Shown in pieces: positions 13,452 to 33,689 of a stretch of DNA of 43,365 bases (positions are counted from its first letter, which is position 1; every line of letters begins with the position of its first letter). Where the stretch lies: IMG/VR virus record IMGVR_UViG_3300042863_001217; one strand, written 5' to 3'. A model generated the notes under the pieces. That model did no database searches. It saw nothing but the letters and a program-made list of their open reading frames with translations, and was not told where the DNA came from. The stretch is from a virus. Taxonomy: Duplodnaviria > Heunggongvirae > Uroviricota > Caudoviricetes. Position numbers and translations under genes: made by a program.

Positions 13452-13880
13452 TCAATCTTTAAATACTTCAATGGTAACTTTCTTTTCTATTAGTTCTGAC
13501 CATACACCATTATATCTGGTACCTCTTACAATGTGATTGTCAATCCAGTGATAATTACCTCCTCGAGGTTTCCCCATTAATAAACCATGATATTTAAAAC
13601 CATGCTTATTTAACCAAGTTTCAGTAATATCTCTAGTCTCTTCGGTTCTTGAAGTAAAAAATGTAATGATGTGTCCTTCATTAAACCATCCGTTTAAAGT
13701 TTCTGCAGCACCATCATATGGTAATACAACTGACATTCTTTCTGGTTCTTCGTTAGGTACATCATCTGTAATTGTACCATCAATATCAATCAAATAGTTT
13801 TTGCATCCAGGATTTAATACTGGTGAAACTAAATGTCCATCATCTCCGATGGTTTGATTAAATGTAATCTCTTTTTTCAT
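13452..13880 (-). CDS. HAD-superfamily phosphatase
   Basis: YLIDIDGT motif I, FFTSR motif II, MGKPRG and WIDN. Confidence 0.8.
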   Translation of the reverse strand: MKKEITFNQTIGDDGHLVSPVLNPGCKNYLIDIDGTITDDVPNEEPERMSVVLPYDGAAETLNGWFNEGHIITFFTSRTEETRDITETWLNKHGFKYHGLLMGKPRGGNYHWIDNHIVRGTRYNGVWSELIEKKVTIEVFKD

Positions 13881-13896
13881 TTTTATATTTAATTAA

Positions 13897-15231
13897 TTAA
13901 TTCTCTTTTCTCATAAACGATACACAAACATATCTTTTACCTGCTGTTATTGGTCTAGCTCCGTGTAAATGTGTGACCATGCCTGGATGTAATGTTGCTG
14001 TTCCAACTTTTCTTGGATTTGATAGTGTTTTGTATTTAGGAAACCATGTTCCACCACCATCAAACTCGTCATTCAATTTTACAACCATAGTAACATGACT
14101 GAAATCATGATGTAAGCTCAAGTGAGATTGACGATCTGTTGTGTATCTTGCCATAAAGTTTTCACTAAACATTGTTGACCAACCTTGACCATCTAATCTC
14201 CATAAATGAATACAAATAGGATATACAACTTCTCTTAATACTCTACCATAAATTTGATCTAAACCAAGTTCGGGTAATAAGACATCATTTGTTGGATAAA
14301 ATTCATGTCTGTCTAGTGTCCACTTATCTAGAGTCTCTGCTAAAGCTACTGCTTCTTTACAGAATTTATCAGTGAATAATGGAAACTCGTAGATATTATT
14401 ACCAATATCATCTATCATTAAGTCATATTCACCCTTAGATAATGTATGATTTAAATATTTAGATTTCCATAATTCCCAATCTGAATCATCTAAGATTTCA
14501 AAATACGGTTGATTGCTTTCTTTCATTAGATTTATATTTGCACCAACAGGTTCTGTGTTAGATTCAGAATGTGGTCGATCTTGTTCTATAAAATTTACAG
14601 TAGGTGCTATTGCTTTAAGTTTAGGAGGAAATAGTTCTGCAATATCTTCACGTCTATGCTTTGTAAAAGTCGCTGTTAAAAATTCATCAGGCGTAATAAG
14701 ATTCTCCGTAAAATTATATTCATTTAACAATGTAAGTGCAGTGTTGTGTTTAATAATATATGCATGCGTATTATAACTACTTAACACTTCTACCCAATTA
14801 TGAGCAACTAATAATTCATCTCCTGGAAATAAAGCATGTCGACCTAGGAATGCAATATCGTATTCGACTTCTGGAATTATTGGATTATTAAATGATTTTA
14901 CTTTATGAAAATCATCTTCTAATATCAGTGCTACTTCAACTTTGTCATCTATGATTTTTTGCCAAATCATATGATGACTTATTGCACAACCTGTTTCACC
15001 TGGAGTTACTTCACGTTGCCACCAACCATTTGTGGTTTCATCTTTTAAATTCCAACCATTATATACAGAATATCCTGGTAATATTTCACCAGATCTTCCA
15101 TCAAATCCTTGAACAATTTCCCATGCAACTGCATATGGTAATTGCAAAGCATCGATCTTTTCTATTATTTTACCTTGAGCTTCAGGTTTATTAGCTTCTA
15201 AACTAATTATATAAATTTTATCTATTTTCAT
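13897..15231 (-). CDS. GT25 glycosyltransferase fused to a PLOD-like 2OG-Fe(II) lysyl hydroxylase domain
   Basis: N-terminal GT25 motifs (IYIISL, GFDG, GETGCAISH, LILEDD); C-terminal WKSKY..IYEFPLFTDKFC..PTND..NFMARY..LSLHHDFS..GGGTWF..LHPGMVTHLHG..GKRYVCVSF. Start at 15231 forms an ATGA overlap with the GT4 gene. Confidence 0.85.
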   Translation of the reverse strand: MKIDKIYIISLEANKPEAQGKIIEKIDALQLPYAVAWEIVQGFDGRSGEILPGYSVYNGWNLKDETTNGWWQREVTPGETGCAISHHMIWQKIIDDKVEVALILEDDFHKVKSFNNPIIPEVEYDIAFLGRHALFPGDELLVAHNWVEVLSSYNTHAYIIKHNTALTLLNEYNFTENLITPDEFLTATFTKHRREDIAELFPPKLKAIAPTVNFIEQDRPHSESNTEPVGANINLMKESNQPYFEILDDSDWELWKSKYLNHTLSKGEYDLMIDDIGNNIYEFPLFTDKFCKEAVALAETLDKWTLDRHEFYPTNDVLLPELGLDQIYGRVLREVVYPICIHLWRLDGQGWSTMFSENFMARYTTDRQSHLSLHHDFSHVTMVVKLNDEFDGGGTWFPKYKTLSNPRKVGTATLHPGMVTHLHGARPITAGKRYVCVSFMRKEN

Positions 15232-16247
15232 ATAGATTCTAATGTAGATTTCCAATCATAAGATCTAGCATTCCATGTTTGACATTTAGCCCATTGGAAA
15301 GCATCTTCAATTGCTTTGTTTTTAAGTTCATTACCTAGTGTGTCTAATATTTTTACGACTTGTTCCCAATTTGTTTCATGACGATCTAATATAATTCCAG
15401 AATTTACAGTCTCATTTAATGCTGCAATATTTGTAACTATAGGAAGTACCTTAGCGTATTGCATTTCTAGTGCAGTGATACAATAAGTCTCTTCATAATC
15501 TGTTATGTAGCACCAATATTCTGATCTTAACATTGCGTTATGTAAGATTTCTTGATTAACAGAACCGTGGAATTTTATTCCCATGCTTTTGTTGTAATGA
15601 CTATCATCAATATCTGTAATTGCATATGCTGGTGAAAACACATCTAATGTAGCATGTGGCATTATTCTTTTAATCGTGTGCCAATTCTCCAATAATTCCT
15701 TTAAACCCCGTTCTGCTGCTGAACTATATATGAATTTACCTTTTATTTTTTCAGGGTTGCCATAGAAGGTAGACAAGTCTATACCGTTTCCAATGACAGA
15801 TATTTTATCTAGTGGTATATTATATGCATTTGACCATTGATTCTTATGCCAATTAGTTAAACATATTGTATGATCCACTTGTTGTATTAATTGGTCAGCA
15901 TCTTGTAATTCTATACCATTAAACCACGGATGATGATGTGTATTATGTGCCCAAAATATCTTCTTAGCATTGTACCCTTTAAATTCTTTTAGGAAATGAA
16001 TATAACTTGCTGAAACAATAAAATCAAATTGATCAAAGTATTTGTTATGTAAATCATTAGTTGAAATCCATTCTACTCCATCGATTAATCCTGAATTATT
16101 AACTTCGCCTGAAACAACAACTTTATAACCAAACTTAACCATCTCTTTGGCTAATTTAATTATAGATACTTCTGTTCCACCGAGACCATATGTAGTGTTA
16201 CCATCGAATCCATGGCTTTGATAACCCGCATAAATTAGTAGTTTCAT
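15228..16247 (-). CDS. GT4-family (GT-B) glycosyltransferase
   Basis: GLGGTE N-terminal motif, IGNGID, YSSAAERGL and EETYCITALE (EX7E). Confidence 0.88.
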   Translation of the reverse strand: MKLLIYAGYQSHGFDGNTTYGLGGTEVSIIKLAKEMVKFGYKVVVSGEVNNSGLIDGVEWISTNDLHNKYFDQFDFIVSASYIHFLKEFKGYNAKKIFWAHNTHHHPWFNGIELQDADQLIQQVDHTICLTNWHKNQWSNAYNIPLDKISVIGNGIDLSTFYGNPEKIKGKFIYSSAAERGLKELLENWHTIKRIMPHATLDVFSPAYAITDIDDSHYNKSMGIKFHGSVNQEILHNAMLRSEYWCYITDYEETYCITALEMQYAKVLPIVTNIAALNETVNSGIILDRHETNWEQVVKILDTLGNELKNKAIEDAFQWAKCQTWNARSYDWKSTLESI

Positions 16248-16280
16248 TTAATTATAATATTATAATATATTTATCTAACT

Positions 16281-16308
16281 AAAAAAAACCTATATTTCTA
16301 TAGGTTTT
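16281..16308 (-). terminator. intrinsic terminator
   Basis: AAAACCTATA/TATAGGTTTT stem with a T-run. Confidence 0.6.
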
Positions 16309-16314
16309 AAATTG

Positions 16315-16842
16315 TTATTTTTTTGTTGCTAATCCCCATACATGTCCACGTGGAGAAACAATATCTTCTAATGTGTAATATTTAGATAATTTATCTAACC
16401 AAAATTCTTTAGGTTCGACTATCAGATGTAGATTTGTTCCATCTTCAAATGAATTAAAAGAAGGTAACAAACACACTTTAAAATAAAATATCTTATTTGT
16501 CTTTGAAGCAATATGTTCTAATACATTATCTAATTTGTCGGGCTCGATATGTTCGAGTACATCAACACAAATTACCATATCACTGGCGATTGGATCACTA
16601 GCTAATTCAGGTCTTGCTGGTTCATATTGATTAATCTGAAAACCATGATCTGGAAAATCACGATCTATTGTTTTCAAGAAATCAGATTTACCAGAACCAT
16701 AATCTAAAATAGATTTGCAATTATGTTCAGATGCATATTTATAAATTCTAGGAACCGATCCTATTACATCTCCGCCCCATGGCATTTTTTGAGTAACAGC
16801 TTCTATCTTGGATCTATACTCGTCTGATAGTAAATTTTCCAT
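16315..16842 (-). CDS. class I SAM-dependent methyltransferase
   Basis: ILDYGSGKS motif I, DMVICVDVLEHI and NLHLIVEPKEFW. Confidence 0.88.
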   Translation of the reverse strand: MENLLSDEYRSKIEAVTQKMPWGGDVIGSVPRIYKYASEHNCKSILDYGSGKSDFLKTIDRDFPDHGFQINQYEPARPELASDPIASDMVICVDVLEHIEPDKLDNVLEHIASKTNKIFYFKVCLLPSFNSFEDGTNLHLIVEPKEFWLDKLSKYYTLEDIVSPRGHVWGLATKK

Positions 16843-17778
16843 TTATCGTTTAGGACCACTAGGTCCATTTGGTTTATTTTGTGGATTTTTCTTAGGTTGA
16901 TCTAAGAACCATCCTTTGTAATATTTACGTTTGGCAAAAATGTATTCAAAATACAAGTCAACCTTTTTCTTCCAATCTTTGTCAATTACTGGATGAATAA
17001 GTCCAGACTTAGGACTTGAAAATGTTCTATTAACCCATTCTGGTGCATTATTTCTGTGGTCAAATAAGTGTGAATTGATTGCATAGAAAGAACCTTGGTG
17101 TACATTATTCCAAACATCAATAGGCTCAACTTCTTTACCTAAAACGGTAGCATATAAAGCACTTTCACTGATGTGAGTTGTATAAACCTTTTCTGCTTTT
17201 TGTAAGAAGTGATACAAATCGATATCTCTAGGTAAAATAGCTTCTTCACCGAAGAGATCTTTGATTTCTCCAATTACAGCGTGCGTTGTAATTGGATGTG
17301 GTTTAAAGTAAATATCACCCTTATGCTCTTTAGCAATTTGAATTAATTTATTTAAACAACAATTTGTTTTAAGCTTATTTGATCCAGGAAGAATAACAAG
17401 AATAGATTTATTTGAATAAGAATCAAAATCTTCTTTACGCTCTTGATACTTGTTAGCCATTTTAGATTCTATATTAGATCTGAAATATGCAGCCCAATCT
17501 GAAACGTCTTCAACATTATCTAGATATGCATCCATGATTTGGCCTGTTCGCATCTTTAGATTTAAAGGTTGTAACATAAATACTGTTGCATATTCGGTAT
17601 ATCCCATAGTTTTGAAGTATGGCATTTCTTCGGCAATCACATCATAACTATGTTCAATACCTAATTCTTTACATTTCTTAATCACATATCTTTCAACCTC
17701 TTCCAAGGCATCCAGATTTACATTCTTTTTTAGAGGTCCTATTCGTTCTGCTAGAACTTTCTTGTTAAACATTTCCAT
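16843..17778 (-). CDS. KpsS/KpsC-like (capsule synthesis family) GT-B protein
   Basis: IYFKPHP...DLYHFLQKAEKVYTTHISESALYATVLGKEV fits the K-HP / ll..a..V.T..S...eA...gk.V pattern. Confidence 0.55.
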   Translation of the reverse strand: MEMFNKKVLAERIGPLKKNVNLDALEEVERYVIKKCKELGIEHSYDVIAEEMPYFKTMGYTEYATVFMLQPLNLKMRTGQIMDAYLDNVEDVSDWAAYFRSNIESKMANKYQERKEDFDSYSNKSILVILPGSNKLKTNCCLNKLIQIAKEHKGDIYFKPHPITTHAVIGEIKDLFGEEAILPRDIDLYHFLQKAEKVYTTHISESALYATVLGKEVEPIDVWNNVHQGSFYAINSHLFDHRNNAPEWVNRTFSSPKSGLIHPVIDKDWKKKVDLYFEYIFAKRKYYKGWFLDQPKKNPQNKPNGPSGPKR

Positions 17779-17797
17779 ATGTTAAAATAATTTAATT

Positions 17798-17824
17798 GTT
17801 ATACAAACAAACTTCTGTTTGTTT
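17798..17824 (-). promoter_or_regulatory. class B promoter (AAAC-N17-TATAAC), with an adjacent GATAAATA motif at 17828-17835
   Basis: Exact spacing; heads the glyco-modification gene run. Confidence 0.65.
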
Positions 17825-17852
17825 AATTATTTATCTAACTTATTTTATAGGC

Positions 17853-17882
17853 AAAAAAAAGACCTACCGAAGTAAGTCTTTT
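17853..17882 (-). terminator. intrinsic terminator with a C(UUCG)G tetraloop
   Basis: Minus strand GACTTAC-TTCG-GTAGGTC followed by T8. Confidence 0.8.
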
Positions 17883-17901
17883 CATTTTAGTATTTTGTGT
17901 T

Positions 17902-20061
17902 TTAATTACCTTGATATGGATTTTGTCTCCATTGTCTATTTGTAGATAGTTTATTAAGAGGTGTATTATTTGCGTACCAAGTTTCTAATTTTTCGTAAGC
18001 TGTAATCCAAGTTGTTGTCCAACTTGTACTCGTAGATACACTTGTAGTCCAAGTTGTTGTGGTTGCCCATGTGGTTGTCCATTCTGTACTAACACTATAA
18101 ATAGTTGACCAAGTTGTAGTTGTCGATTGACTCGTACTCTGGCTCGTATTATAAGTGGTCGTTGTAGATACACTTGTATTATACGTAGTAGTCGTAGATG
18201 CACTCGTATTATACGTAGTAGTCGTAGACTGTGACGTATTTTTAAGAGTTGCCCAAGTAGTTGTCCATTCTGTAACCCAACTTGTAGTTGTACTTTGGCT
18301 CGTATTCCAATTTGTAGTCCACGAAGTAGTATACGTCATAGTCGTTGACTGATTGGTAGACTGACTCGTTGTCCAACTTGTAGTTGTACTTTGTGAAGTA
18401 GAAAATGAAGTTGACCATGAAGTCGTCCATGTTGTCGTTGTACTATGACTCGTAGATTGACTCGTTGTCCAATTAGTTTGCCAAATTGTCGTTGTACTAA
18501 GCGTAGTAGATTGACTCGTTGTGTGACTAGTTGAATATGTTGTTGTCCACGTAGTAGTCGTAGACTGACTCGTTGATTGGCTAGTTCCATGACTAGTTGA
18601 CCAAGTTGTAGTTGTACTATGACTTGTACTATGACTCGTTGTATGACTCGTTGTCCATGTAGTCGTGTACGTGGTTGTAGTCGATTGGTTAGTAGACCGA
18701 CTTGTAGCCCATGTAGTAGTTGTACTTCGACTCGTAGATTGACTCGTAGTGTGACTTGTTAACCATGTAGTTGTATACGTAGTTGTGGTACTTTGACTCG
18801 TATTATATGTAGTTATCCAAGATGTAATCCAACTTGTAGATGTAGATCTACTCGTACCTTGACTCGTATTATATGTTGTCGATGTAGCATGACTCGTTGT
18901 GTGACTAGTTACATATGCAGTAGTCCATGAAGTTGTCCACGTAGTAGTTGTACTATGACTCGTATTATACGTGGTCGTTGTAGATCTACTTGTTGACTGA
19001 CTCGTAGTGTGACTAGTTGAATATGTAGTTGTCCACGTAGTAGTTGTACTATGACTCGTAGACCAAGCTGTCGTTGTAGATCTACTAGTACTTTGACTCG
19101 TCATGTGACTAGTTACATAATTTGTAAGCCATGTTGTAGTCGTTGTATGACTCGTTGACCAATTAGTTGTATATGTTGTCGTTGTATTCTGAGCTGTTAA
19201 ATCACTGGTAACTCGACTTGTAATATATGTTGTAGTCCATGAAGTTGATGTTGAATGACTAGTGTTATATGCAGTTGTTGTCGATTGACTCGTCGCATGA
19301 CTCGTATTATACGTTGTAGTCCAATATGTAGTCCACGTAGTAGTCGTACTTTGACTCGTTGCATGACTCGTTATGTATGTAGTAGTTGTACTTTGACTCG
19401 TTACATGACTCGTTGCCCAACTAGTGATCCACTCAGTCCAATATGAAGTTGATGTTGAATGACTAGTGTTATATGTTGTTGATGTTGCTAGACTTGTACT
19501 TTGACTCGTTGAATGACTAGTTGCATATGATGTTGTATACGTAGTTGATGTTGCATGACTCGTCGCCCAAGTAGTAGTCCAAGCTGTTGATACATCCGAA
19601 AATGTACTTTGACTAGTAGTATGTGAAGTACTTGCAGAAGTATTATATACTGTACTAGTAGAATGACTCGTTGCCCAAGTAGTAGTTGTATTATGACTCG
19701 TAGTTTGGCTAGTGTTAAAATAAGTAGTCCAATAAGTATCCCAATAAGTTGCGGTTACATGTGATGTAGTTCTGCTAGTATTGTATGATGTTGTCCATGC
19801 AGTAGATGTAACATGACTAGTATTAAAATATGTAGTCCATGAAGTACTAGCATAAATTATAGGAGGATATGTAACCTGAGAAGTATTTGCATAATAGAAT
19901 GTACTTTGACTAGTGTTTCTATAAAACGAAGTAGTTCTACTAGGATACGCGATATAACTCGTAGTTCTACTAGGATATACCCATGCAGCAGTTGCACGAG
20001 AATATGGAACAGGGCCATATGCTTGATATGAAGTAGTCCAATATGTTGTATAAATCGCCAT
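17902..20061 (-). CDS. Thr/Ser-rich repetitive protein (xTS-W/Y/H/Q repeats), putative virion fibre or decoration protein
   Basis: 719-aa uninterrupted ORF in a region where other frames close; degenerate codons under a strict peptide pattern. Confidence 0.85.
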   Translation of the reverse strand: MAIYTTYWTTSYQAYGPVPYSRATAAWVYPSRTTSYIAYPSRTTSFYRNTSQSTFYYANTSQVTYPPIIYASTSWTTYFNTSHVTSTAWTTSYNTSRTTSHVTATYWDTYWTTYFNTSQTTSHNTTTTWATSHSTSTVYNTSASTSHTTSQSTFSDVSTAWTTTWATSHATSTTYTTSYATSHSTSQSTSLATSTTYNTSHSTSTSYWTEWITSWATSHVTSQSTTTTYITSHATSQSTTTTWTTYWTTTYNTSHATSQSTTTAYNTSHSTSTSWTTTYITSRVTSDLTAQNTTTTYTTNWSTSHTTTTTWLTNYVTSHMTSQSTSRSTTTAWSTSHSTTTTWTTTYSTSHTTSQSTSRSTTTTYNTSHSTTTTWTTSWTTAYVTSHTTSHATSTTYNTSQGTSRSTSTSWITSWITTYNTSQSTTTTYTTTWLTSHTTSQSTSRSTTTTWATSRSTNQSTTTTYTTTWTTSHTTSHSTSHSTTTTWSTSHGTSQSTSQSTTTTWTTTYSTSHTTSQSTTLSTTTIWQTNWTTSQSTSHSTTTTWTTSWSTSFSTSQSTTTSWTTSQSTNQSTTMTYTTSWTTNWNTSQSTTTSWVTEWTTTWATLKNTSQSTTTTYNTSASTTTTYNTSVSTTTTYNTSQSTSQSTTTTWSTIYSVSTEWTTTWATTTTWTTSVSTSTSWTTTWITAYEKLETWYANNTPLNKLSTNRQWRQNPYQGN

Positions 20062-20100
20062 GTTTTAGTTTATATAATTTATTTCTATTTATTATTCTAT

Positions 20101-22830
20101 TTACATCTCTTTAATTCCAGGACCATCTTTACCACATAAATAATCACAACCAAAGTCACCTGCATATGGGCTACATGGATCATAACATGGATCATTTGGA
20201 TCACATAAGAATGGACCATATCCATTAAAATCACATAAACCTGGTTTCTTATTATGAGTTAAGATTCCATTTGCAAAAAATGTATCGTTGGGTTCAGTGT
20301 CTAATTTATAAACAACATATGGTGTAGTAGTATCTTCAACTAATGAAGTTATTTCTATTTCTATACCACTGATGTGATATAATTTATCTCCAAGTTGTAA
20401 TGCAGAAGCAGCTCTAGAGATCCATGCGCCATCTCTTTTAAAAATGTGCATATGTTCAGCTGTAGTTTTTAATAATCCATTATTTATATCTATGATACCG
20501 AAAACATTTACACGATCTGCTCTAACTAAAATATCATCTATTGATAAACTATTTGTAATATTAGGAGTAGATACTGCTATTAATGCCGGTATATTATCAA
20601 CATTAAATGGTCCATCCATTGTTAAAATATTATCGTTTAGTTTTAAACTTTCAACAAGCACAGTAGTATTCGTTGAAATATTAATCGGCGTTCCTTCGAC
20701 TATACAATCGAAAGCTTCAGTACTTCTTTCTGCTGTATAACTTACCCAATAATATTCATATTGATCCCAGTAAGTTGTCCATTCTTGCCATGATGACCAT
20801 GTAGTTGTGTAAGAAACAGTAGACGTCCAATTGGTTCCATATTCAACATAAGTACTCCATGTCGTTGTATAATTTATAGCTGTCGACCATGTGGTTGTAT
20901 AAGATCCACCTCCACCAACTTGTGTAGATCTAGATAATGCTAGAGAAGTTCCATAAGTCGTAGTTGTACTTTGACTCGTAACATGTGAAGTTACCCAAGT
21001 AGTTGTATATGTAGTTGTGGTATTTATTCCAGTACTTCTACTTGCACCAGCTGATGTCCCCCATGTAGTTGTATAAGTAGTCGAAGTTATTCGAGATGTA
21101 TTATAAACTGTTGAAGTTGCATGACTCGTTGCCCAAGTAGTTGTATATGAGGTAGTCCATGAAGTAGTCCAAGTATATCTAGTTATTTGACTCGTAGATC
21201 TACTTGTATTATATGTAGTTGTAGTAGAATGACTCGTACTATGACTAGTTGCATATGTTGTAACCCATGAAGTTGTCCACGTAGTAGTCGTTGAATGACT
21301 AGTTGCATATGTTGTTGTTGTATTATGAGAAGTTACTCTTTGTGTAACTTGACTTGTATTATATGTTGTAGTCCACGTGGTAGTCGTTGAATGGCTAGTT
21401 GCATATGAAGTTGTCCACGTAGTACTTGTAGTTCTACTTGTTGACTGACTCGTAGTGTGACTAGTTGCATATGTTGTTGTCCACGTAGTACTTGTACTAT
21501 GACTTGTGTTATATGTTGTAGTAGTTGATTGACTCGTAGTGTGACTAGTTGCCCATGAAGTAGTCCACGTAGTAGTCCATATTGTAACGGTTGTATGACT
21601 AGTACTTTGGCTTGTGTTATACGTGGTCGTAGTTGATTGACTCGTACTATATAATGTATTATATGAAGTAGACCATGAAGTAGTCCACGTAGTAGTTGTA
21701 CTTTGGCTTGTGTTATACGTGGTCGTAGTCGATTGACTTGTAGCATGACTTGTGCTATAAGTTGTAGTCCACGCAGTAGTCCACGTAGTAGTAGTTGAAT
21801 GACTCGTACTATAAGTTGTTGTTGTAGACGCACTAGTACTTTGACTCGTTGTATGACTAGTTGCATATGACGTTGTGTATGTAGTTGTAGTTGAATGACT
21901 CGTTAACCACACAGTAGTCCATGAAGTAGTTGTACCCATTGAAGTTGTCAGTTCATATGCAGTAGTATGCGAAGTTGTCCAAGTTGTTGTTGTACTATGT
22001 GAAGTGGTCTGACTAGTATTATATGAAGTAGTCCATGAAGTTGTCCATGAAGTTGTCGTAGAAACACCAGTATCCCAAGTTGTAGTCCACGCAGTAGTTG
22101 TACTATGCGAAGTAGTTTGATTTGTATTATACGAAGTTGTCCATGAAGTTGTATAAGTAGTTGTAGTCGATTGACTAGTACTATATGTTGTAACCCATGA
22201 AGTAGTCCATACAGTAGATGTACTTTTATTCGTCGAATGACTAGTGCTATAAGTTGTAGTCCATGAAGTTGTCCAAGTAGTTGTCGTACCTTGACTTGTA
22301 TTCCATAATGTAGTCCATGAAGTTGTATAAGTAGTAGTTGTACTTTGACTCGTAGATTGACTAGTTGTCCAAGTTGTTACCCATGAAGTGCTCGTACTCT
22401 GATTAGTTGTCCATGAAGTAGTCCAAGTAGTTGTAGTACTATGTGATGTGCTTTGACTGGTTCCAATAGAAGTACCCCAAACTGTTGTTGTAGATCTAGA
22501 AGTACCCAAACTAGTAGTCTGATTAGTATCAACCAATGTAGCCCAAACTGTTGATGTACTATGTGATGTAGACCAAACTGTAGTTGTACTATGTGATGTA
22601 GACCAAACTGTAGTTGTACTATGTGAAGTTGACCACACTGTTGTCCAAGTGGTCGTAGTAGATTGACTAGTATTAAATGCCTTGTCAGTCATTCTTGAAG
22701 TTGTTACAGCTTCATTCGTAGACTGAGAAGTTGACCACGCAGTCGTAGTAGACTGTGCAGTACTCTTTGAAGTTGATACACCGCTTGATGTACTCCAAAA
22801 ATCGATTCTAGAAAATCCTATATTCTTCAT
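20101..22830 (-). CDS. Thr/Ser-rich repetitive protein with a C-terminal Hint domain and Cys-rich tail
   Basis: 909 aa; same repeat as its neighbour, then CIVEGT..TTAEH..FFANGILTHN and a 49-aa peptide with 6 Cys. Confidence 0.85.
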   Translation of the reverse strand: MKNIGFSRIDFWSTSSGVSTSKSTAQSTTTAWSTSQSTNEAVTTSRMTDKAFNTSQSTTTTWTTVWSTSHSTTTVWSTSHSTTTVWSTSHSTSTVWATLVDTNQTTSLGTSRSTTTVWGTSIGTSQSTSHSTTTTWTTSWTTNQSTSTSWVTTWTTSQSTSQSTTTTYTTSWTTLWNTSQGTTTTWTTSWTTTYSTSHSTNKSTSTVWTTSWVTTYSTSQSTTTTYTTSWTTSYNTNQTTSHSTTTAWTTTWDTGVSTTTSWTTSWTTSYNTSQTTSHSTTTTWTTSHTTAYELTTSMGTTTSWTTVWLTSHSTTTTYTTSYATSHTTSQSTSASTTTTYSTSHSTTTTWTTAWTTTYSTSHATSQSTTTTYNTSQSTTTTWTTSWSTSYNTLYSTSQSTTTTYNTSQSTSHTTVTIWTTTWTTSWATSHTTSQSTTTTYNTSHSTSTTWTTTYATSHTTSQSTSRTTSTTWTTSYATSHSTTTTWTTTYNTSQVTQRVTSHNTTTTYATSHSTTTTWTTSWVTTYATSHSTSHSTTTTYNTSRSTSQITRYTWTTSWTTSYTTTWATSHATSTVYNTSRITSTTYTTTWGTSAGASRSTGINTTTTYTTTWVTSHVTSQSTTTTYGTSLALSRSTQVGGGGSYTTTWSTAINYTTTWSTYVEYGTNWTSTVSYTTTWSSWQEWTTYWDQYEYYWVSYTAERSTEAFDCIVEGTPINISTNTTVLVESLKLNDNILTMDGPFNVDNIPALIAVSTPNITNSLSIDDILVRADRVNVFGIIDINNGLLKTTAEHMHIFKRDGAWISRAASALQLGDKLYHISGIEIEITSLVEDTTTPYVVYKLDTEPNDTFFANGILTHNKKPGLCDFNGYGPFLCDPNDPCYDPCSPYAGDFGCDYLCGKDGPGIKEM
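20251..20706 (-). other. Hint (intein-like, BIL-type) autoprocessing domain, 152 aa
   Basis: Cys1 (AFD|CIVEG), block B TxxH (TTAEH), terminal His-Asn; the +1 residue is Lys; no endonuclease insert. Confidence 0.85.
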
Positions 22831-25897: not shown

Positions 25898-26503
25898 TTA
25901 TTTTTTTCTGGTCAAAAGATCCATGAAATTTAAATGTTGCTTTAAAATGTCTAATTTGGTATCACTGTCGTTTGTTTTATACCAAGCCCATGCAGTAGAA
26001 GATAATATATTATTCTGTTTTTCTTTTAACTTATTAATACTATTTTCGATAGATTCTATTTGATCGTATGCAGATTCCGGTAATTCAATTTCTAATTTAA
26101 TAGCACATCTAATTAATTTAGCCCAATCTTCAGTTTCATTAGCATCTACCGAGTCTTCATAAATAGCTTTATATTCATTTGATTTAACTTCAGTTAAATC
26201 AGTTGGTAATTTATCAGGATGACATCTTATGACTACCTTTCTAAATAAGCTTTTAAAATCTGGATGTTTATTAGATTCCTTTTCTTCGTCTTCAAGATCT
26301 TTTACACTACGAGCCCAATCATTTGCCATAGAGTCCATTTGTTCAGTCTCTAAAATACCAGTCTCATCAATATCTGATAGTGACTTCATAAACGAATCTT
26401 TTATTTCAGAGTTCGCAACTTCAATATCTTTTAGATCTTCTATTAGAAATTCATATTCTCGTACTAATCTTTTAAAAATTATCTTATTTGTGTTAATAGA
26501 CAT
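25898..26503 (-). CDS. coiled-coil protein with an internal J-domain-like HPD motif
   Basis: FKSLFRKVVIRCHPDKL followed by a helical segment. Confidence 0.65.
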   Translation of the reverse strand: MSINTNKIIFKRLVREYEFLIEDLKDIEVANSEIKDSFMKSLSDIDETGILETEQMDSMANDWARSVKDLEDEEKESNKHPDFKSLFRKVVIRCHPDKLPTDLTEVKSNEYKAIYEDSVDANETEDWAKLIRCAIKLEIELPESAYDQIESIENSINKLKEKQNNILSSTAWAWYKTNDSDTKLDILKQHLNFMDLLTRKK

Positions 26504-26506: not shown

Positions 26507-27706
26507 TTATTTATATAGATTAGTTGACCAATCATATATAGAACCCAACTTATGATCTTTAATTCCCATCGTAGTTTCAATTAATTGCTTATAAGTCTCT
26601 AATAAACCTTCATTGAATATGGTGTATCGTGTTAGAACTTTCTCACTTCTTTCAGTGTATTCTTCTATATTGTTGTCATGTTGTTCTATTGCCAGTTTCA
26701 GTTGTCTAGCTCCCATACCTATACTATTACCTGAATAATAATATCCGGCGTCCTTAATCATTGGCGCATTATGTACTAACGGAAACTGTAAATAAAGTGC
26801 ATCCAGGTATGAGTAGTTAAGAGGATTTGATAATTGATGTGCAATTACAATATCTGCAAATTGAGCAAGTGCATCAATAGCCATTAGTCTTGGTAAATAT
26901 GTAAGTTTAATAGGATCTGTATTAAAAATAGTAGTATGTTTAATCACTGATGTGTAATATTCACTATGTAAAAGTTTATCTCCACATATAATGTTTAATC
27001 TACTAAACTTTCCACCTGAATTTAAATAATCTTCAGCTATTAATAAGTTATTAATATGCCATTTTTGAATACCAATATTAGGTTCAAAACATGCTAATTG
27101 TTTTTCTTCATTTGCTTTCCCGGGTTTGTATATTGGAATTGGTAATCCTTTTTCTATAACTTCAGAATTGTTATATTTTTCAGAAGTTATATCTAAAAAT
27201 ACAGGATCCCATATAAATGGAACTGGTCTAACTTTACTTGCAGGTAAATTATGTAATACTCTATAATATTCTCTATTTAATTCTTCTTGCTGCGGTACAT
27301 ACCATATCTCGTCAATTTCTTGATTATATCCGGCGGCTCCGGGATTGTTAAATATCACATGTTCGGCATCATTCATATAATTATTACCACATACATATTT
27401 TACAACCTTTTTATTGGGTCCAGTCTTTTTAAAATCTAAAATATCTTGATCAGAATATGTAGCACCCAACCATATCATTAAATCGGTATCGTTTGCTTTT
27501 TCTTTATAATCATATATTGGAAATTCATTTATATCCCATGCAATTTTACCTTCATAAGGTGCTTGAACTTCACTTGCATTTAATATGTATACATTATAAC
27601 CTATTTCTTTTAAAGCCTTAAGTAAATAAAGAGCATTTAATTTAATACCATTTATCCAAATGCTTTCGTTTTCTGTTGACAAGTGAATTGTAATACCAAT
27701 ATTCAT
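26507..27706 (-). CDS. DUF2827-like putative glycosyltransferase
   Basis: SIWINGIKLN, YVCGNNY, VPFIWDP, FEPN, NPLNYSYLDALY..PLVHNA..GYYY; recalled family pattern, not searched. Confidence 0.65.
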   Translation of the reverse strand: MNIGITIHLSTENESIWINGIKLNALYLLKALKEIGYNVYILNASEVQAPYEGKIAWDINEFPIYDYKEKANDTDLMIWLGATYSDQDILDFKKTGPNKKVVKYVCGNNYMNDAEHVIFNNPGAAGYNQEIDEIWYVPQQEELNREYYRVLHNLPASKVRPVPFIWDPVFLDITSEKYNNSEVIEKGLPIPIYKPGKANEEKQLACFEPNIGIQKWHINNLLIAEDYLNSGGKFSRLNIICGDKLLHSEYYTSVIKHTTIFNTDPIKLTYLPRLMAIDALAQFADIVIAHQLSNPLNYSYLDALYLQFPLVHNAPMIKDAGYYYSGNSIGMGARQLKLAIEQHDNNIEEYTERSEKVLTRYTIFNEGLLETYKQLIETTMGIKDHKLGSIYDWSTNLYK

Positions 27707-27737: not shown

Positions 27738-27767
27738 AAAAAAAGGGTCAGCTTAAGCTGACCCTTT
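27738..27767 (-). terminator. intrinsic terminator
   Basis: 11-bp stem AAAGGGTCAGC/GCTGACCCTTT with a T-run on the minus strand. Confidence 0.8.
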
Positions 27768-29280: not shown

Positions 29281-29317
29281 AAAAAACGCTGAGTATATTT
29301 GGTATACCCAGCGTTTT
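29281..29317 (-). terminator. intrinsic terminator
   Basis: AAAACGCTG..CAGCGTTTT stem with an inner GTATA/TATAC extension. Confidence 0.65.
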
Positions 29318-29350
29318 AATTTTATTTTATTTTATATATTTTATAATATA

Positions 29351-30193
29351 TTAATCTAAGCTTGATTTTTGGTAAGAAATATCGATATCGTCGGTTGCGT
29401 CTAACTCGTAGCCTGCAATTGAACCGTTCCAGTAAAGTAAATCATTAGCTGCAATATTTGCTATAGATCTTGCAGTTGAACCTGCATCGTTAGAAAAATA
29501 AGCAGCTTCGGTTTTAACTCCGTCACCTAAATTAATTTCTACACCATTTACTTTAACCGTTACAATTGAATCATGAAACGGAGTAAAAGTTATTGCAATT
29601 CCTGTTGAATCACCATCAGCTTCAGTTATTGTTGAAACTTTATTTAAGTCAATTCCAGTACCTACACCAACTTCAGTAATACCCGCAGTTGAAGTAGCTT
29701 CGAATCTTCCAATAATATCATCGATCCAATAACCTCTATCTGGTAATTCTCCCGACAATTGTGAAATATTAGCTATAATAGGTAAACCTTCGCTATCTAA
29801 TTCTATACAAACTCCAGCTTGTTCTTCATCTGGATAATTATTACTAGTACCAGACACATCACTTAAAAGTATATAATTGTCAACATCTTCAATAATTACT
29901 ACCATATTGGAATCACCATCTCTAGAAATTACAGAAGATATTTTATATGCTTTTCCAGAAGGTTGTAATAACCAGTCACCTGCTGTAATATCACTAGCAC
30001 CATATTGAAATGGTGTAGGAGTTGAAACATCTGAATGTGATTGTACAGTGATTGTTAGACCTACTTGAAATTTCGTAGGATAGCCGAACAATGTGCTAGT
30101 TTCATCTGTTATAGTATCTGCTACAACTAAAGATCCTGAGTTTATCTTAGTAATTAATAATTGTGTTGGTTTCCCCGTTTGATTAGTTGCCAT
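29351..30193 (-). CDS. putative structural protein (beta-rich)
   Basis: C-terminal VKVNG..YELDATDDI domain resembles the C-terminus of 27793..29220. Confidence 0.75.
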   Translation of the reverse strand: MATNQTGKPTQLLITKINSGSLVVADTITDETSTLFGYPTKFQVGLTITVQSHSDVSTPTPFQYGASDITAGDWLLQPSGKAYKISSVISRDGDSNMVVIIEDVDNYILLSDVSGTSNNYPDEEQAGVCIELDSEGLPIIANISQLSGELPDRGYWIDDIIGRFEATSTAGITEVGVGTGIDLNKVSTITEADGDSTGIAITFTPFHDSIVTVKVNGVEINLGDGVKTEAAYFSNDAGSTARSIANIAANDLLYWNGSIAGYELDATDDIDISYQKSSLD

Positions 30194-30212
30194 TTTATAA
30201 TTTTGTTTTTAT

Positions 30213-33200
30213 TTATGATTCTACAAAGAATGTTATAATTATGTAAGAAGGCGTAGCTCCTGTTGCAACACCAACTGCTGTTGTAACTGCAGTAAATTGT
30301 ACAGAGGCATTACTTTCTGTATTTATTATTGCATTTACAGAGGCAGTAGTACCTATAATAGCTTTGGTAAATAAATTACCTACACCATCTCTTGCCGTAG
30401 TAGAACCCATTAAAACTGGTTTTCCTAAAGGATGTGTAAGTGTTAGGTTATTGCTTGATTTTGCAATATTCCAACCACTAACTAACCAACCTGATGCACT
30501 ATTGTATATTTCTGTACCATTAGGTGCATACACGTTTGCGATAGGTGTAGTAGCATCTATACTACCAGATAATGTGTTAACTTTAATTTTATAAGCAACT
30601 ATAGCTCCAGTAGCATTTGTTCCATCATTACCTGGAGCACCTTGTACTCCATCGATTCCAGATGTACCATTAATACCATCGATTCCAGAAGTACCATCTA
30701 AACCATTTGTTCCGTCGTTTCCATTAGCACCATCAATACCTGAAGTACCATCAAAACCACTTGTTCCATCAATACCTGAAGTACCATTAGTTCCATCGTT
30801 TCCATTAGCACCTTGTAAACCATCGATTCCAGATGTACCATTTAAACCATCAATTCCTGATGTTCCGTTTAAACCATCGATTCCAGATGTACCATCGTTT
30901 CCATTAGCACCTTGAATTCCATCAATACCTGATGTTCCGTTTAAACCATCGATTCCAGATGTACCATCGTTTCCATTAGCACCTTGAATTCCATCGATTC
31001 CAGAAGTACCATTTGTACCGTCTAAACCATTAGTTCCATCGTTACCATTAGCACCTTGTAAACCATCGATACCTGATGTTCCGTTTAAACCATCGATTCC
31101 AGATGTACCATCGTTTCCATTAGCACCTTGAATTCCATCGATTCCAGAAGTACCATTTGTACCGTCTAAACCATTAGTTCCATCGTTACCATTAGCACCT
31201 TGAATTCCATCGATTCCAGAAGTACCATTTGTACCGTCTAAACCATTAGTTCCATCGTTACCATTAGCACCTTGTAAACCATCGATACCAGAAGTTCCAT
31301 CTAAACCGTTTGTTCCATCGTTACCATTAGTACCTTGAAGTCCATCAATACCTGAAGTACCATTAGTTCCATCGTTACCATTAGCACCTTGAAGTCCATC
31401 GATTCCAGAGGTTCCATCTTGACCAGCTAAACCTGAAGTTCCGTTTTGACCATCAATACCTGATGTTCCATTAATACCTGAAGTTCCAGTATCACCTTGA
31501 ATACCTTGTGCTCCATTAGTTCCTGAAGTTCCGTTTTGACCAGCTAAACCCGAAGTTCCATTTTGACCGTTTATTCCAGATGTACCATCAATACCTGATG
31601 TTCCATCGTTTCCAGCATTACCTTGGTCACCTTGAATACCCTGTGCTCCATTAGTTCCTGAAGTTCCATCTTGACCATTTAAACCGGAAGTTCCATTGAT
31701 ACCAGAAGTTCCACTAACTCCTGAAGTTCCATTAGTTCCACTAGTTCCATTTTCTCCGGCAAGACCTTGATCTCCTTGTGCTCCATTTGTTCCATCAATA
31801 CCTGAACTTCCATTAAGTCCTGAAGTACCATTAACTCCTGAAGTTCCAGCAGGTCCAGTTTCACCTTGATCACCTTTTACACCTATTTCTCCGTTTGTTC
31901 CAGAAGTACCATTAATACCTGATGTACCATCTTGACCATTTATACCTGAAGTACCATCAATTCCTGATGTACCATCGTTTCCATTTATACCGTTTAAACC
32001 AGAAGTTCCATTTGTTCCAGAAGTTCCATCAATACCAGAAGTTCCAGCATTACCTTGTAAACCAGTTTCACCTTGTAAACCAGTTTCACCTTGTAAACCT
32101 TGTGCTCCATCAATACCCGAAGTTCCATCTAAACCATTAATTCCAGAAGTTCCATCTAAACCATTTGTACCATCGTGACCTGAAGTTCCATCAATTCCTG
32201 ATGTACCATTTACTCCAGAAGTTCCATCATTACCAGCAGCTCCTTGTGTTCCATCAATTCCTGATGTACCATCTAAACCATTAGTACCAGATGTACCATC
32301 TAAACCATTTGTACCATTAATTCCTGATGTACCACTTTCGCCATTTGTTCCTGAAGTTCCATCATTACCAACATTACCTTGTGCTCCGTTAATTCCAGAT
32401 GTACCATCTAAACCATTTGTTCCTGAAGTTCCATCATTACCAGCATTACCTTGTGCTCCGTTAATTCCAGAAGTTCCATTGATACCTGATGTACCATCTT
32501 GACCATTGATTCCAGAAGTTCCAGCTAAACCATTGATTCCTGATGTTCCATCTTGACCATTGATTCCAGAAGTTCCAGAAGTTCCATTAGTTCCAGATGT
32601 ACCATCAATACCAGCATCACCTTGTAAACCTTGTGCTCCATTAATACCACTAGTTCCATTGATTCCTGAAGATCCAGAAGTTCCAGACGTAGTAACAGTA
32701 ACTGAAGGGAAAATAACTTCAACACTTCCGTTTCCATCATTATTTACAATTGCACCACCACTAAATTTAATGTTATGTACATCATTTATAGCAGCAGCGC
32801 CGTTTGGTGTGATTGATATACCATGTGGTGAAGAATAAGATTCTGTAAAAATACCTAATTCATCTCCAGCTTCAATTAAGTAAGATGATCCAGGTACATA
32901 TGAATTTCCTTCTGCCTGAACTATTAATTCAATAGCATCATCAGCTTCATTTACAAGAGGATTATTTTGATCAGCGTTAATTACATCAATTCTACTCCAG
33001 CTTTTAATTTCAAATGCAGAATATTCGCTATTATTATTTACGTTAGTTAAGAATAAAGAAACTAAAACACCATCTATATTAATTCTATTCTCTAATACTG
33101 ATTCAAGATATGCATTTCTATAACCCTTATCATCTTTAAGTGCAATTCTAATTTTACTAACACTCGATGGATTTGCAGCATTTAAAATAATTTCACCCTG

Positions 33201-33689
33201 TGCTGGTTTACCAGTGATTGAAAATGATTTTACTTTATATACAGATCCTGGTAAAGTAAATCTACTAGTTACTATATCTCCGACAGCTTTTCCTGCATCA
33301 TAAACATTTGCAACCTTAATAGCAGGTAAGTCAACTTTATTAATACCTAAAGTAGTATAAACTTTAGCTTTTATTGCTCCTGATATATTAGCATCACTAA
33401 ATGGTAAAGCTGCAGTTTGTTCAGCAGATATTGCTATAGATATTTCTCCTTGGAAATCTGAATTAGGTGAACCAAAAACAAGTGTTCCTGATGTTTTTGC
33501 AAATGTAGCAATTAAAGTATTATTAGTGTCAAATAAATCTACTTTAATTTCATTGGCAACCCCAATATTTAGTTGATTACCAATGTAATCTTGGTGTAGC
33601 ATAAGTTTTATGCTATTAGCTTGACCTCTAACGATTCTCGCTACTTCCGGTAATACTAAAATTATGTTTTGATTTGAAACAGTTGGCAT
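30213..33689 (-). CDS. large collagen-like (GTS/GID/GLN/GND) fibre protein
   Basis: About 330-aa globular N-terminus, about 690 aa of G-X-Y, about 110-aa C-terminal domain. Confidence 0.88.
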   Translation of the reverse strand: MPTVSNQNIILVLPEVARIVRGQANSIKLMLHQDYIGNQLNIGVANEIKVDLFDTNNTLIATFAKTSGTLVFGSPNSDFQGEISIAISAEQTAALPFSDANISGAIKAKVYTTLGINKVDLPAIKVANVYDAGKAVGDIVTSRFTLPGSVYKVKSFSITGKPAQGEIILNAANPSSVSKIRIALKDDKGYRNAYLESVLENRINIDGVLVSLFLTNVNNNSEYSAFEIKSWSRIDVINADQNNPLVNEADDAIELIVQAEGNSYVPGSSYLIEAGDELGIFTESYSSPHGISITPNGAAAINDVHNIKFSGGAIVNNDGNGSVEVIFPSVTVTTSGTSGSSGINGTSGINGAQGLQGDAGIDGTSGTNGTSGTSGINGQDGTSGINGLAGTSGINGQDGTSGINGTSGINGAQGNAGNDGTSGTNGLDGTSGINGAQGNVGNDGTSGTNGESGTSGINGTNGLDGTSGTNGLDGTSGIDGTQGAAGNDGTSGVNGTSGIDGTSGHDGTNGLDGTSGINGLDGTSGIDGAQGLQGETGLQGETGLQGNAGTSGIDGTSGTNGTSGLNGINGNDGTSGIDGTSGINGQDGTSGINGTSGTNGEIGVKGDQGETGPAGTSGVNGTSGLNGSSGIDGTNGAQGDQGLAGENGTSGTNGTSGVSGTSGINGTSGLNGQDGTSGTNGAQGIQGDQGNAGNDGTSGIDGTSGINGQNGTSGLAGQNGTSGTNGAQGIQGDTGTSGINGTSGIDGQNGTSGLAGQDGTSGIDGLQGANGNDGTNGTSGIDGLQGTNGNDGTNGLDGTSGIDGLQGANGNDGTNGLDGTNGTSGIDGIQGANGNDGTNGLDGTNGTSGIDGIQGANGNDGTSGIDGLNGTSGIDGLQGANGNDGTNGLDGTNGTSGIDGIQGANGNDGTSGIDGLNGTSGIDGIQGANGNDGTSGIDGLNGTSGIDGLNGTSGIDGLQGANGNDGTNGTSGIDGTSGFDGTSGIDGANGNDGTNGLDGTSGIDGINGTSGIDGVQGAPGNDGTNATGAIVAYKIKVNTLSGSIDATTPIANVYAPNGTEIYNSASGWLVSGWNIAKSSNNLTLTHPLGKPVLMGSTTARDGVGNLFTKAIIGTTASVNAIINTESNASVQFTAVTTAVGVATGATPSYIIITFFVES
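30612..32690 (-). repeat. coding Gly-X-Y repeat with higher-order duplications; boundaries approximate
   Basis: GTSGIDG(L/I)QGANGNDG blocks recur several times at about 30800-31400. Confidence 0.85.

Follow-up and report, generated by a model that had tools for sequence, protein, structure and literature searches.

Why does a phage genome interleave sugar-modifying enzymes with genes for very long repetitive proteins, and do the enzymes act on these proteins? The question is raised by a 43,365-nucleotide stretch of DNA from an uncultured virus of the Caudoviricetes (IMG/VR record IMGVR_UViG_3300042863_001217)—the whole of which is called the window here—and, within it, by positions 13452–33689. 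A first-pass annotation had seen in this part a single 20-kb island dedicated to the decoration of virion fibres, with glycan shielding, host attachment, or buoyancy as putative roles. The genes that it listed are present as listed: a HAD phosphatase, a GT25–hydroxylase fusion, a GT4 glycosyltransferase, a methyltransferase, a KpsS-like gene, a DUF2827 gene, and five long proteins. The single system has to be given up, as sequence comparison resolves the island into three modules with separate histories—a collagen module, a Thr/Ser-rich module, and a DUF2827 module—each of which is found apart from the others in other phages. The presence of all three within one 20-kb block is what sets this window apart. 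The reading preferred here, and considered moderately probable, is that positions 13452–33689 form a block of virion-fibre genes in an uncultured marine jumbo phage related to T4, with three sets of protein-modifying enzymes placed inside it that act on the fibres. Gene content, domain homology, catalytic motifs, predicted folds, and synteny were read directly; substrates, sugars, and the location in the virion are deduced from them.

Every open reading frame (ORF) of the window is encoded on the minus strand; the G+C content is ∼32%. In the direction of transcription, from position 33689 to 13452, the block runs from the 1158-residue (aa) collagen-like fibre over the 280-aa protein, the 475-aa Ala/Ser-rich fibre, the 399-aa DUF2827 protein, the 201-aa protein, the 983-aa collagen-like fibre, and the 909-aa and 719-aa Thr/Ser/Trp-rich proteins to the enzymes: the 311-aa transferase, the 175-aa methyltransferase-like protein, the 339-aa GT4, the GT25–oxygenase fusion, and the 142-aa HAD phosphatase (Table 1). 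A synteny comparison across related phage genomes finds the pairing of enzyme and fibre genes kept within each module. The proposal of sugar enzymes that specifically serve the fibres encoded next to them is, hence, supported by synteny at the loci of GT4/GT25–lysyl hydroxylase (LH), of the KpsS-like transferase, and of DUF2827; its N-glycosylation part is not.

Table 1. Features of the window and the evidence on which each assignment is based
Feature	Position	Strand	Evidence
Collagen-like fibre protein, 1158 aa	30213..33689	-	Pfam Collagen 2.4e-106; PHROG tail-fibre families; triplet census
Collagen-like fibre protein, 983 aa	22858..25809	-	Pfam Collagen 2e-86; triplet census, Lys contexts
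GT25–LH fusion	13897..15231	-	GT25 domain ∼14644-15222; LH domain ∼13912-14475
GT4-family glycosyltransferase, 339 aa	15228..16247	-	Pfam Glyco_transf_4 42.8 bits vs cut-off 28.5
HAD-superfamily phosphatase, 142 aa	13452..13880	-	Pfam LNS2 6e-7
Thr/Ser/Trp-rich repeat protein, 909 aa, with putative C-terminal Hint domain and Cys-rich tail	20101..22830	-	T 34%, S 17%
Putative Hint (bacterial-intein-like) domain within the 909-aa protein, residues ∼709-860	20251..20706	-	Profiles below cut-off; Cys start, T-H-N end
Second Thr/Ser/Trp-rich repeat protein, 719 aa	17902..20061	-	T 39%, S 20%
Transferase, 311 aa, predicted retaining β-Kdo glycosyltransferase fold	16843..17778	-	Model pLDDT 83.7; fold matches
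SAM-methyltransferase-like protein, 175 aa	16315..16842	-	PHROG methyltransferase 4.8e-24; Pfam Methyltransf_23 7e-4, below cut-off
KdsB, CMP-Kdo synthetase (3-deoxy-manno-octulosonate cytidylyltransferase)	39605..40303	-	Pfam CTP_transf_3 3.5e-44
KdsD-like arabinose-5-phosphate isomerase, SIS domain only	40303..40899	-	Pfam SIS 3e-17; NCBIfam KdsD 6.5e-48
DUF2827 protein, 399 aa, predicted GT-B glycosyltransferase	26507..27706	-	Pfam PF10933 6.4e-76; model
Ala/Ser-rich repeat fibre, 475 aa	27793..29220	-	Sequence; shared N-terminal motif
Fibre-block protein of 280 aa, no family	29351..30193	-	Homologues of 250-660 aa conserved in the block
Protein of 236 aa, no family	33727..34437	-	Opens the fibre block in relatives, where it is conserved; upstream of fibre genes in most DUF2827 loci
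Protein of 201 aa with HPD motif, possible degenerate J-domain co-chaperone	25898..26503	-	HPDK in sequence
Terminator-like hairpin between the 280-aa and 475-aa fibre genes	29283..29317	-	15-pair stem followed by T run; consensus match only
Terminator-like hairpin upstream of DUF2827	27742..27767	-	11-pair stem, 6 GC pairs, T run

The five very long low-complexity proteins described before all exist but are of three kinds: two are collagen-like, one is Ala/Ser-rich, and two are Thr/Ser/Trp-rich. Composition, Pfam Collagen matches, and repeats differ between them, and a single family is rejected on these grounds. The collagen-like fibres score 348 bits (1158 aa) and 284 bits (983 aa) in Pfam Collagen (PF01391), whose cut-off is 27.2. 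The 1158-aa protein features a single run of 230 G-X-Y triplets (residues 336–1025) with globular N- and C-terminal domains on either side; the 983-aa protein features 202 triplets distributed over three runs—mainly GTN, GTS, and GSS—and globular ends as well. Lysines of the helices occupy the Y position exclusively (one in the 1158-aa and seven in the 983-aa protein, none at X in either), amounting to eight candidate G-X-K-G sites across both fibres. The GT25–hydroxylase fusion gains meaning because two of the fibres are collagen-like, a property of which the earlier reading had made no use.

In a search of PDB sequences, the LH domain of this fusion (residues 261–448) matches mimivirus L230 (6ax6) at 5e-28 and human LH3 at 6e-23; in the HMMER alignment with L230, the His-x-Asp pair, the distal His, and the 2-oxoglutarate (2OG)-binding Arg are all aligned and identical. 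The GT25 domain reaches 57.3 bits in the Pfam family of this name (cut-off of 24) and aligns over residues 45–204 with the catalytic GT2 domain of COLGALT1 (7e-10); COLGALT1 is also listed among the PDB matches of the fusion at 2e-9. The metal motif EDD is kept in this alignment—L-E-D-D in the fusion and F-E-D-D in COLGALT1—and constitutes the unusual Mn site of the catalytic domain in the latter (PMC12003778). Lysyl hydroxylases act on Lys at the Y position of collagen triplets (PMC9546862). The fusion can, as judged by its sequence, be regarded as a homologue of the PLOD/L230-type LH joined to a COLGALT1-type GT25, with a predicted activity on X-Lys-Gly. Its probable start is the ATG at 15231, which yields 444 aa and agrees with the 444 to 445 aa of its homologues. 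The stop codon TGA of the GT4 gene overlaps with this start codon as ATGA—the classical arrangement of translational coupling—so that the two genes are taken from the sequence as coupled. The C-domain of GT4 (GT1-type) stays below the cut-off, with 22.9 bits compared with 26.4.

Nine related IMG/VR loci keep GT4 and GT25–LH together: the genes are adjacent in eight, and a 190-aa 2OG oxygenase lies in between in the ninth (L009). Across the collagens of the relatives, 1975 lysines are found at Y versus 145 at X. Where the collagens of relatives are Pro-rich, a PF13640 2OG oxygenase is added at this place; in locus L007, whose collagens are rich in both Pro and Lys (34 Lys at Y and none at X), the oxygenase, a prolyl-hydroxylase-family enzyme, is encoded immediately upstream of GT4. 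Another branch features a stand-alone LH of 211 aa at a distance of ∼3 kb from the gene of a 1852-aa collagen with Lys in 23% of the Y positions. The arrangement also occurs in a cultured phage: the 1452-aa annotated tail fibre of Synechococcus phage S-8S55 carries 24 Lys at Y in 55 triplets, and after its gene come those of two 2OG oxygenases and of a GT25–LH fusion of 621 aa. In the mechanism proposed, the PLOD/L230-type domain would hydroxylate Y-position lysines of the collagen-like fibres, and the COLGALT1-type domain would add a hexose to the resulting hydroxylysine (Hyl). The coupled GT4 would probably add a second sugar, so that the phage would make its own version of the Glc-Gal-Hyl mark of animals; or it may act instead on the abundant Thr and Ser residues of the triplets.

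The HAD phosphatase at the end of the block shows weak matches to the NCBIfam model "capsule biosynthesis phosphatase" (1.7e-4) and to PDB entry 1xpj (2e-4). It is a backbone gene and directly follows the KpsS-like and methyltransferase genes where the GT4/GT25–LH pair is absent (L010 and L014). Another variant of the enzyme set is seen in L065:2211-5262, where the genes after the KpsS-like one encode a 344-aa protein of unknown type, a 449-aa GT25-type protein whose C-terminal half is unlike LH, and a PhyH-family dioxygenase.

The Thr/Ser-rich module combines the two Thr/Ser/Trp-rich proteins with the 311-aa transferase. The repeat proteins consist of Ser and Thr to 51 to 59%, with an aromatic residue at every fourth position and a period of ∼36 residues; the N- and C-termini of the 909-aa protein and the C-terminus of the 719-aa protein are conserved in relatives. 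Structure prediction for the KpsS-like and DUF2827-like proteins returned the fold of β-Kdo transferases (Kdo being 3-deoxy-manno-octulosonate) for the former and a GT-B fold for the latter. For the 311-aa protein, the name KpsS-like is, thus, borne out by the predicted fold but by no sequence family: searches with the single sequence and with a 26-sequence profile against PDB, and searches of Pfam and NCBIfam, gave no relevant match. The model, built on the 26 homologues, retrieves retaining β-Kdo glycosyltransferases at all of ranks 1 to 24 in Foldseek. In VIA, it aligns with KpsC at a Z of 10.7, WbbB at 9.8, and KrkA at 8.4, compared with at most 7.2 for other GT-B enzymes, and the top 15 rows all belong to the KpsC/WbbB/KrkA group (Z 8.2–10.7). 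It also matches AlphaFold-DB clusters named "capsule polysaccharide biosynthesis protein". The motif K-P-H-P is invariant in the 26 homologues; in retaining β-Kdo glycosyltransferases, the His of the HP motif protonates the CMP phosphate, and a Q-x-x-x-D motif carries the Asp nucleophile (PMC10148158). Going by the model, the 311-aa protein has the KpsC/WbbB β-Kdo-transferase fold.

The gene neighborhood of this transferase is conserved. IMG/VR holds 259 relatives of the 311-aa protein, and an identical copy is present on contigs of up to 260,917 bp. The gene directly upstream of the transferase could be read at 77 retrieved loci, from jumbo as well as ∼40- to 60-kb phages, and encodes at least 45% Ser+Thr in 76 of them. 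The usual order is a fibre with a C-terminal domain of the 983-aa type, a first Ser/Thr-rich protein, a Hint-like protein of ∼350 aa, a second Ser/Thr-rich protein, and the transferase. The Thr-rich/transferase order is the same in both phage classes, and genes of the capsid module follow in the ∼40- to 60-kb phages. Among cultured phages, KVP40 has KVP40.0254 (49% Ser+Thr, repeats of the T-W-T-T-S-W type) ahead of KVP40.0256, and Caulobacter phage Lullwater has the tail fibre gp40, the Thr-rich gp41, and gp42 in order. Identity of the KpsS-like proteins across the loci that conserve the pairing is 59 to 81% and falls to ∼25% in cultured phages. Fibres of other phages that are encoded immediately before Ser/Thr-rich genes end in the same C-terminal domain as the 983-aa fibre (∼140 aa; 22858–23300, minus strand). 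Many unrelated small phages show this arrangement, as if the domain were part of the Thr-rich module. The methyltransferase is a companion of the KpsS-like gene and not of the collagen enzymes, with homologues following the KpsS-like gene in L014, L058, L060, L070, and L078.

Genes for the supply of Kdo are present in the same window, outside positions 13452–33689. KdsB is above the cut-off of its NCBIfam models (235.6 versus 193, and 169.9 versus 155.2 for TIGR00466). The KdsD-like isomerase scores below the full-length NCBIfam cut-off because its CBS part is missing, and probably supplies the precursor for Kdo, as suggested by its sequence. In L058, a cupin–methyltransferase–KdsA group stands right behind the transferase, with KdsA two genes after it, and the two most complete transferase-bearing phages (G057 and G059) feature a cupin–cytidylyltransferase–KdsA cluster. 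In L171 (G057:C1:3000-15000), a locus of a 62-kb, 98% complete phage, the ORFs at 3753–8039 encode a JmjC-type oxygenase, a cupin, a cytidylyltransferase, a KdsA-like protein, an unknown protein, and a weakly sialyltransferase-like protein (GT29); this cluster stands apart from the Thr-rich/transferase module of the same phage. A search for the KdsA family in five related fragments found none and is uninformative since these are only 27 to 59% complete. In the proposed mechanism, the two Thr/Ser/Trp-rich proteins would act as acceptors of the KpsC/WbbB-fold transferase, whose donor would be a CMP-activated ulosonic acid—most likely Kdo provided by the phage's KdsB and KdsD—and the small methyltransferase may then methylate the transferred ulosonic acid. 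That the Thr-rich proteins are the acceptor, and that the donor is CMP-Kdo or a derivative of it, is what we infer from this arrangement.

The 909-aa protein carries a putative C-terminal Hint domain, which is matched by Pfam Intein_splicing (1e-4, 22.5 bits) and PT-HINT (6e-4, 20.6 bits), both below cut-off, and receives further weak support from PDB entry 6y75 (4e-4) and from Hint families of the protein atlas with scores of ∼0.8. It starts with a Cys at ∼709 and ends with T-H-N at ∼858 to 860. The residue directly after the terminal H-N is Lys, not the Cys, Ser, or Thr of a splicing intein. With the +1 nucleophile after the terminal Asn lacking, the domain could, from its sequence, cleave but not splice classically. 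In smaller phages, the homologous Hint region forms a separate ORF of ∼350 aa in which neither Cys nor His-Asn is retained (L026:5342-6406), and the Thr-rich ORF ahead of it ends in a Gly run and C-x-x-G-C.

The DUF2827 protein covers positions 1 to 361 of the 362 profile positions of its Pfam family with 256 bits (cut-off of 25). Its model has a pLDDT of 90.8 and, among PDB structures, most closely resembles the retaining GT4 enzymes MshA and BshA (E 2.5e-10, TM 0.55–0.6). In 79 related loci, the block around it reads ClpP, a 107-aa protein, the 236-aa protein, optionally a collagen fibre, a protein of the 280-aa type, a fibre, DUF2827, further genes, and a collagen fibre. In 53 of the 79, the distance between DUF2827 and a collagen-like ORF is no more than 8 kb. 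Bacterial members of the same Pfam family (Burkholderia, Veillonellales, and Pasteurellales) are constantly encoded beside trimeric autotransporter adhesins—long trimeric fibrous surface proteins—and have been proposed to be cytoplasmic protein glycosyltransferases (bioRxiv 10.64898/2026.01.22.700529). The neighbours are secreted adhesins in the bacteria and fibres in the phage, and the function is putative in both. In the mechanism proposed, the DUF2827 GT-B transferase would glycosylate one of the neighbouring trimeric fibres.

The fibres of the block may be held by a common site. The N-terminal motif M-x-x-[LI]-K-x-K-Q-I is common to the 983-aa and 475-aa proteins and to 63 proteins of relatives. 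Since it is shared by different fibres, a common docking site is suggested, and the motif is possibly a docking peptide, as far as sequence can tell. It spans otherwise unrelated fibres—collagen-like, Ala-rich, and 250-aa proteins, e.g., in L007:1417-3804—and one carrier among the relatives is a collagen protein that also has the tail-spike chaperone domain Peptidase_S74. A T4-type capsid-targeting leader was considered for this motif and rejected: the motif does not resemble the leader, and E, D, and G alternate among its final residues. Between the collagen runs of the 983-aa fibre, at residues ∼575 to 625 (23900–24100, minus strand), a conserved noncollagen interruption reads G-D-A-Y-I-V...L-W-I-W...G-W...G-S-I-Q-G and is present in relatives too.

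Several observations weigh against enzymes that act on the fibres of their own block. The collagens of the window offer few target lysines, eight per 432 triplets. Across 50 related contigs, mostly fragments, the association of LH with Lys-rich collagen is suggestive and not clean, and three long LH-negative contigs carry Lys-rich collagens. Among the conserved columns of the 311-aa family, the Q-x-x-x-D motif is not found, and the strand before the HP-bearing half reads L-P-G-S-N-K; because this nucleophile motif is not seen, the chemistry of the KpsS-like enzyme, and possibly its donor, may differ. Kdo genes occur in two of 20 transferase-bearing contigs, most of which are fragments; the cytidylyltransferase accompanies KpsS-like in these two of 20 and is found in none of 23 contigs without it, numbers too small for significance. 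To our knowledge, a linkage between Kdo and protein is without precedent. The block sits amid metabolic genes, and no recognisable T4 baseplate or tail genes lie beside it in the window. Finally, a gene resembling dCMP hydroxymethylase is present, so that one of the GT-B enzymes could act on DNA. The furthest-reaching form of the proposal is put forward as a doubtful one: in marine phages, a CMP-activated ulosonic acid (Kdo or a methylated derivative) would be placed on Ser/Thr of the giant Thr-rich fibres by a new transferase family with β-Kdo fold and without the Asp-nucleophile motif—a protein–Kdo linkage not known from any organism. In the phage of the window, it would coexist with animal-type glycosyl-hydroxylysine on the collagen-like fibres; the Hint domain there may cut the Thr-rich protein or transfer it covalently to a partner.

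Four other explanations of the block were weighed. The N-x-S/T triplets of the repeat proteins, stressed in the first-pass annotation for their density, could be sites of asparagine-linked glycosylation. An excess over a composition-preserving shuffle of each protein exists in the 983-aa protein only (97 observed versus 46 expected, z = 10), the other four having z of 0.9 to 2.2. This excess is due to the alternation of GTN and GTS collagen triplets. The density in related collagen-like fibres ranges from 0 to 9.9 per 100 aa, the 983-aa protein itself having 9.9, and orthologues with the same N-terminus have 6.5, 4.5, 1.0, 1.2, and 0.3, with Asp or Ser in place of Asn. As had been noted before, no oligosaccharyltransferase is visible: Pfam scans of the window ORFs yielded neither STT3/PglB nor the HMW1C/NGT-type family (GT41). 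Bacterial cytoplasmic N-glycosyltransferases of the latter type (HMW1C/NGT) require no oligosaccharyltransferase. With sequons that are a by-product of collagen triplets, are not conserved, and are accompanied by none of these enzyme families in the scans, N-glycosylation is rejected as very improbable. Alternatively, KpsS-like, DUF2827, and GT4 might remodel lipopolysaccharide (LPS) or capsule of the host, e.g., to block superinfection, their location among fibre genes merely marking the hypervariable host-recognition region of T4-like marine phages. Host-LPS modification is indeed the published reading of glycosyltransferases among the tail-fibre genes of pelagimyophages and cyanomyophages (PMC7029224); the nearest solved folds to the 311-aa protein make capsule linkers and O-antigen caps, and KdsB and KdsD supply LPS and capsule synthesis in bacteria. 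For individual enzymes, LPS or capsule modification is possible. As an account of the block it is considered unlikely because it leaves unexplained the LH domain fused to GT25, the Ser/Thr-rich ORF that precedes KpsS-like at nearly all loci and across unrelated phage types, and the fixed place of DUF2827 in the fibre block together with its linkage to bacterial adhesins.

DNA itself might be the acceptor, if DUF2827, GT4, or both glucosylated hydroxymethyl-cytosine in the manner of the T4 α- and β-glucosyltransferases. The 282-aa ThyA-like protein at 35860–36708 (minus strand) is closer to T4 dCMP hydroxymethylase (4e-19) than to thymidylate synthases (4e-12), and from this sequence the phage probably makes hydroxymethyl-cytosine DNA; a normal ThyA is encoded besides at 40903–42018. 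T4 α-glucosyltransferase is among the structural matches of DUF2827, at rank 43 with a TM of 0.54, which is no better than dozens of other GT-B enzymes. As GT4 is translationally coupled to the collagen enzyme and DUF2827 stays between fibre genes over wide divergence, glucosylation of DNA by these enzymes is improbable. Equally little weight is given to the absence of any functional link, in which the enzymes would be unrelated cargo of a plastic region and part of the repeat ORFs would encode something other than virion proteins. The independent occurrence of the three modules and the metabolic and chaperone genes that flank the block speak for such an accidental assembly; the persistence of gene pairing within each module, across large sequence divergence and different phage architectures, speaks against it. 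Modification of the neighbouring fibres is, hence, retained as the preferred reading.

Viewed in this way, the collagen module has its closest counterpart in mimivirus, which encodes L230 (LH and Hyl glucosyltransferase), R655 (GLT25D-like), R699 (Gal-Hyl glucosyltransferase), L593 (prolyl hydroxylase), and eight collagen-like proteins (PMC9546862). In both cases, the virus encodes collagen-like proteins and a bifunctional enzyme in the order glycosyltransferase and then LH, the LH domains are homologous, and relatives of the phage add a prolyl-hydroxylase-family enzyme. Unlike mimivirus, the phage infects a bacterium and not an amoeba, its fusion is half the size, and its enzyme genes adjoin the presumed substrates; its glycosyltransferase domain is GT25/COLGALT1-like and resembles R655 rather than that of L230, and the partner is a GT4 and not a PLOD-type glycosyltransferase. 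L230 transfers glucose, and the phage GT25 would transfer a hexose. With the animal pathway of PLOD1-3 and COLGALT1/GLT25D1 (PMC12003778, PMC11897130), the phage enzyme shares both catalytic domains, the Fe/2OG ligands, the EDD Mn motif, and candidate Y-position lysines before Gly. The animal enzymes are separate proteins that reside in the endoplasmic reticulum and form a complex; the phage enzyme is one cytoplasmic polypeptide without the accessory GT1/AC domains.

Glycosylation of virion proteins by phage enzymes has been reported in another setting by Freeman et al. 2023 (Cell Host Microbe; cited in PMC12582341). They are said to have demonstrated that mycobacteriophage glycosyltransferases encoded beside structural genes modify Ser/Thr-rich tracts of the phages' own virion proteins, the acceptors reportedly being short C-terminal tracts on capsid and tail-tube proteins. 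The candidate acceptors of the window are, in contrast, whole repeat proteins of 700 to 1700 aa and collagen helices, and the enzymes, seen here as genes, belong to other families. The exosporium of Bacillus anthracis carries the collagen-like filament BclA, whose Thr-rich triplets are O-glycosylated—with Thr at the Y position of GPT—by enzymes for rhamnose and anthrose. The phage triplets have Thr at X (GTN and GTS), with GT4 and DUF2827 as candidate enzymes. The 311-aa protein shares with KpsC/KpsS (GT107), WbbB (GT99), and KrkA (PMC10148158, PMC9587256, PMC12887879) the modified GT-B fold, the invariant HP motif, and genes for CMP-Kdo synthesis nearby. It differs from them by being phage-encoded, by the lack of detectable sequence similarity and of a visible Q-x-x-x-D, and its conserved neighbour is a Ser/Thr-rich protein and not lipid or polysaccharide machinery.

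No publication was found on the LH–GT25 enzyme or on the pair of Kdo-transferase-like and Thr-rich proteins in bacteriophages; prolyl hydroxylases of marine viruses have been called cryptic (PMC9301287). If the preferred reading is true, phages carry a compact, cytoplasmic machinery for Lys hydroxylation and glycosylation of collagen on a single polypeptide; machinery of this kind has to date been described in animals and giant viruses only. Such a finding would bear on the origin of collagen-modifying machinery and would offer small enzymes for the production of modified recombinant collagen in bacteria. The Thr-rich/Kdo-transferase-like pair, widespread through IMG/VR as well as in KVP40 and Caulobacter phages, would represent a second and chemically new kind of virion glycosylation. 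For marine T4-like phages, the results suggest that at least some of the glycosyltransferases of the tail-fibre region, now read as modifiers of host LPS, act on the phage's own receptor-binding apparatus, which, if true, changes the reading of host range and phage–host recognition in the ocean. Cultured carriers exist in S-8S55, KVP40, and Lullwater.

The remaining genes of the block are less informative. The 236-aa and 280-aa proteins have no Pfam match, and PHROGs holds no family for the 280-aa, 475-aa, DUF2827, 201-aa, 909-aa, 719-aa, and 236-aa proteins. The J-domain protein noted earlier is only partly upheld: the HPD motif is found in the 201-aa sequence, but Pfam DnaJ (PF00226) gives no match up to E = 1; a lead from the protein atlas is a related cluster with DnaJ in 27% of its members. 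The 475-aa gene is bracketed by the two terminator-like hairpins, and a hairpin scan finds none of comparable strength from DUF2827 down to the HAD gene. A scan for sigma-70 promoters gave fewer sites than shuffled sequences and is disregarded. The probable host belongs to the Bacteroidota, whose promoters differ. In a nucleotide search against cultured phages, the enzyme block has no match.

Some further features of the window are recorded here. GC skew is positive only over the two Thr-rich genes (18001–22000) and negative across the rest of the window, a switch that probably reflects codon composition. The set of chaperones and proteases is unusually rich and comprises ClpP (34861–35550), a ClpB/ClpC-type double AAA+ ATPase (36736–38751), a full DnaJ (4504–5304), and the HPD-motif protein (25898–26503), all on the minus strand. 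Downstream of the HAD gene, an ATP-grasp protein (12488–13441, minus strand) starts with M-R-A-I-H-K-F-E-D-F-L-N-E, like a T4-type capsid-targeting leader, and the ORFs at 5921–6457 and 42347–42784 have an N-terminal start similar to this leader-like one.

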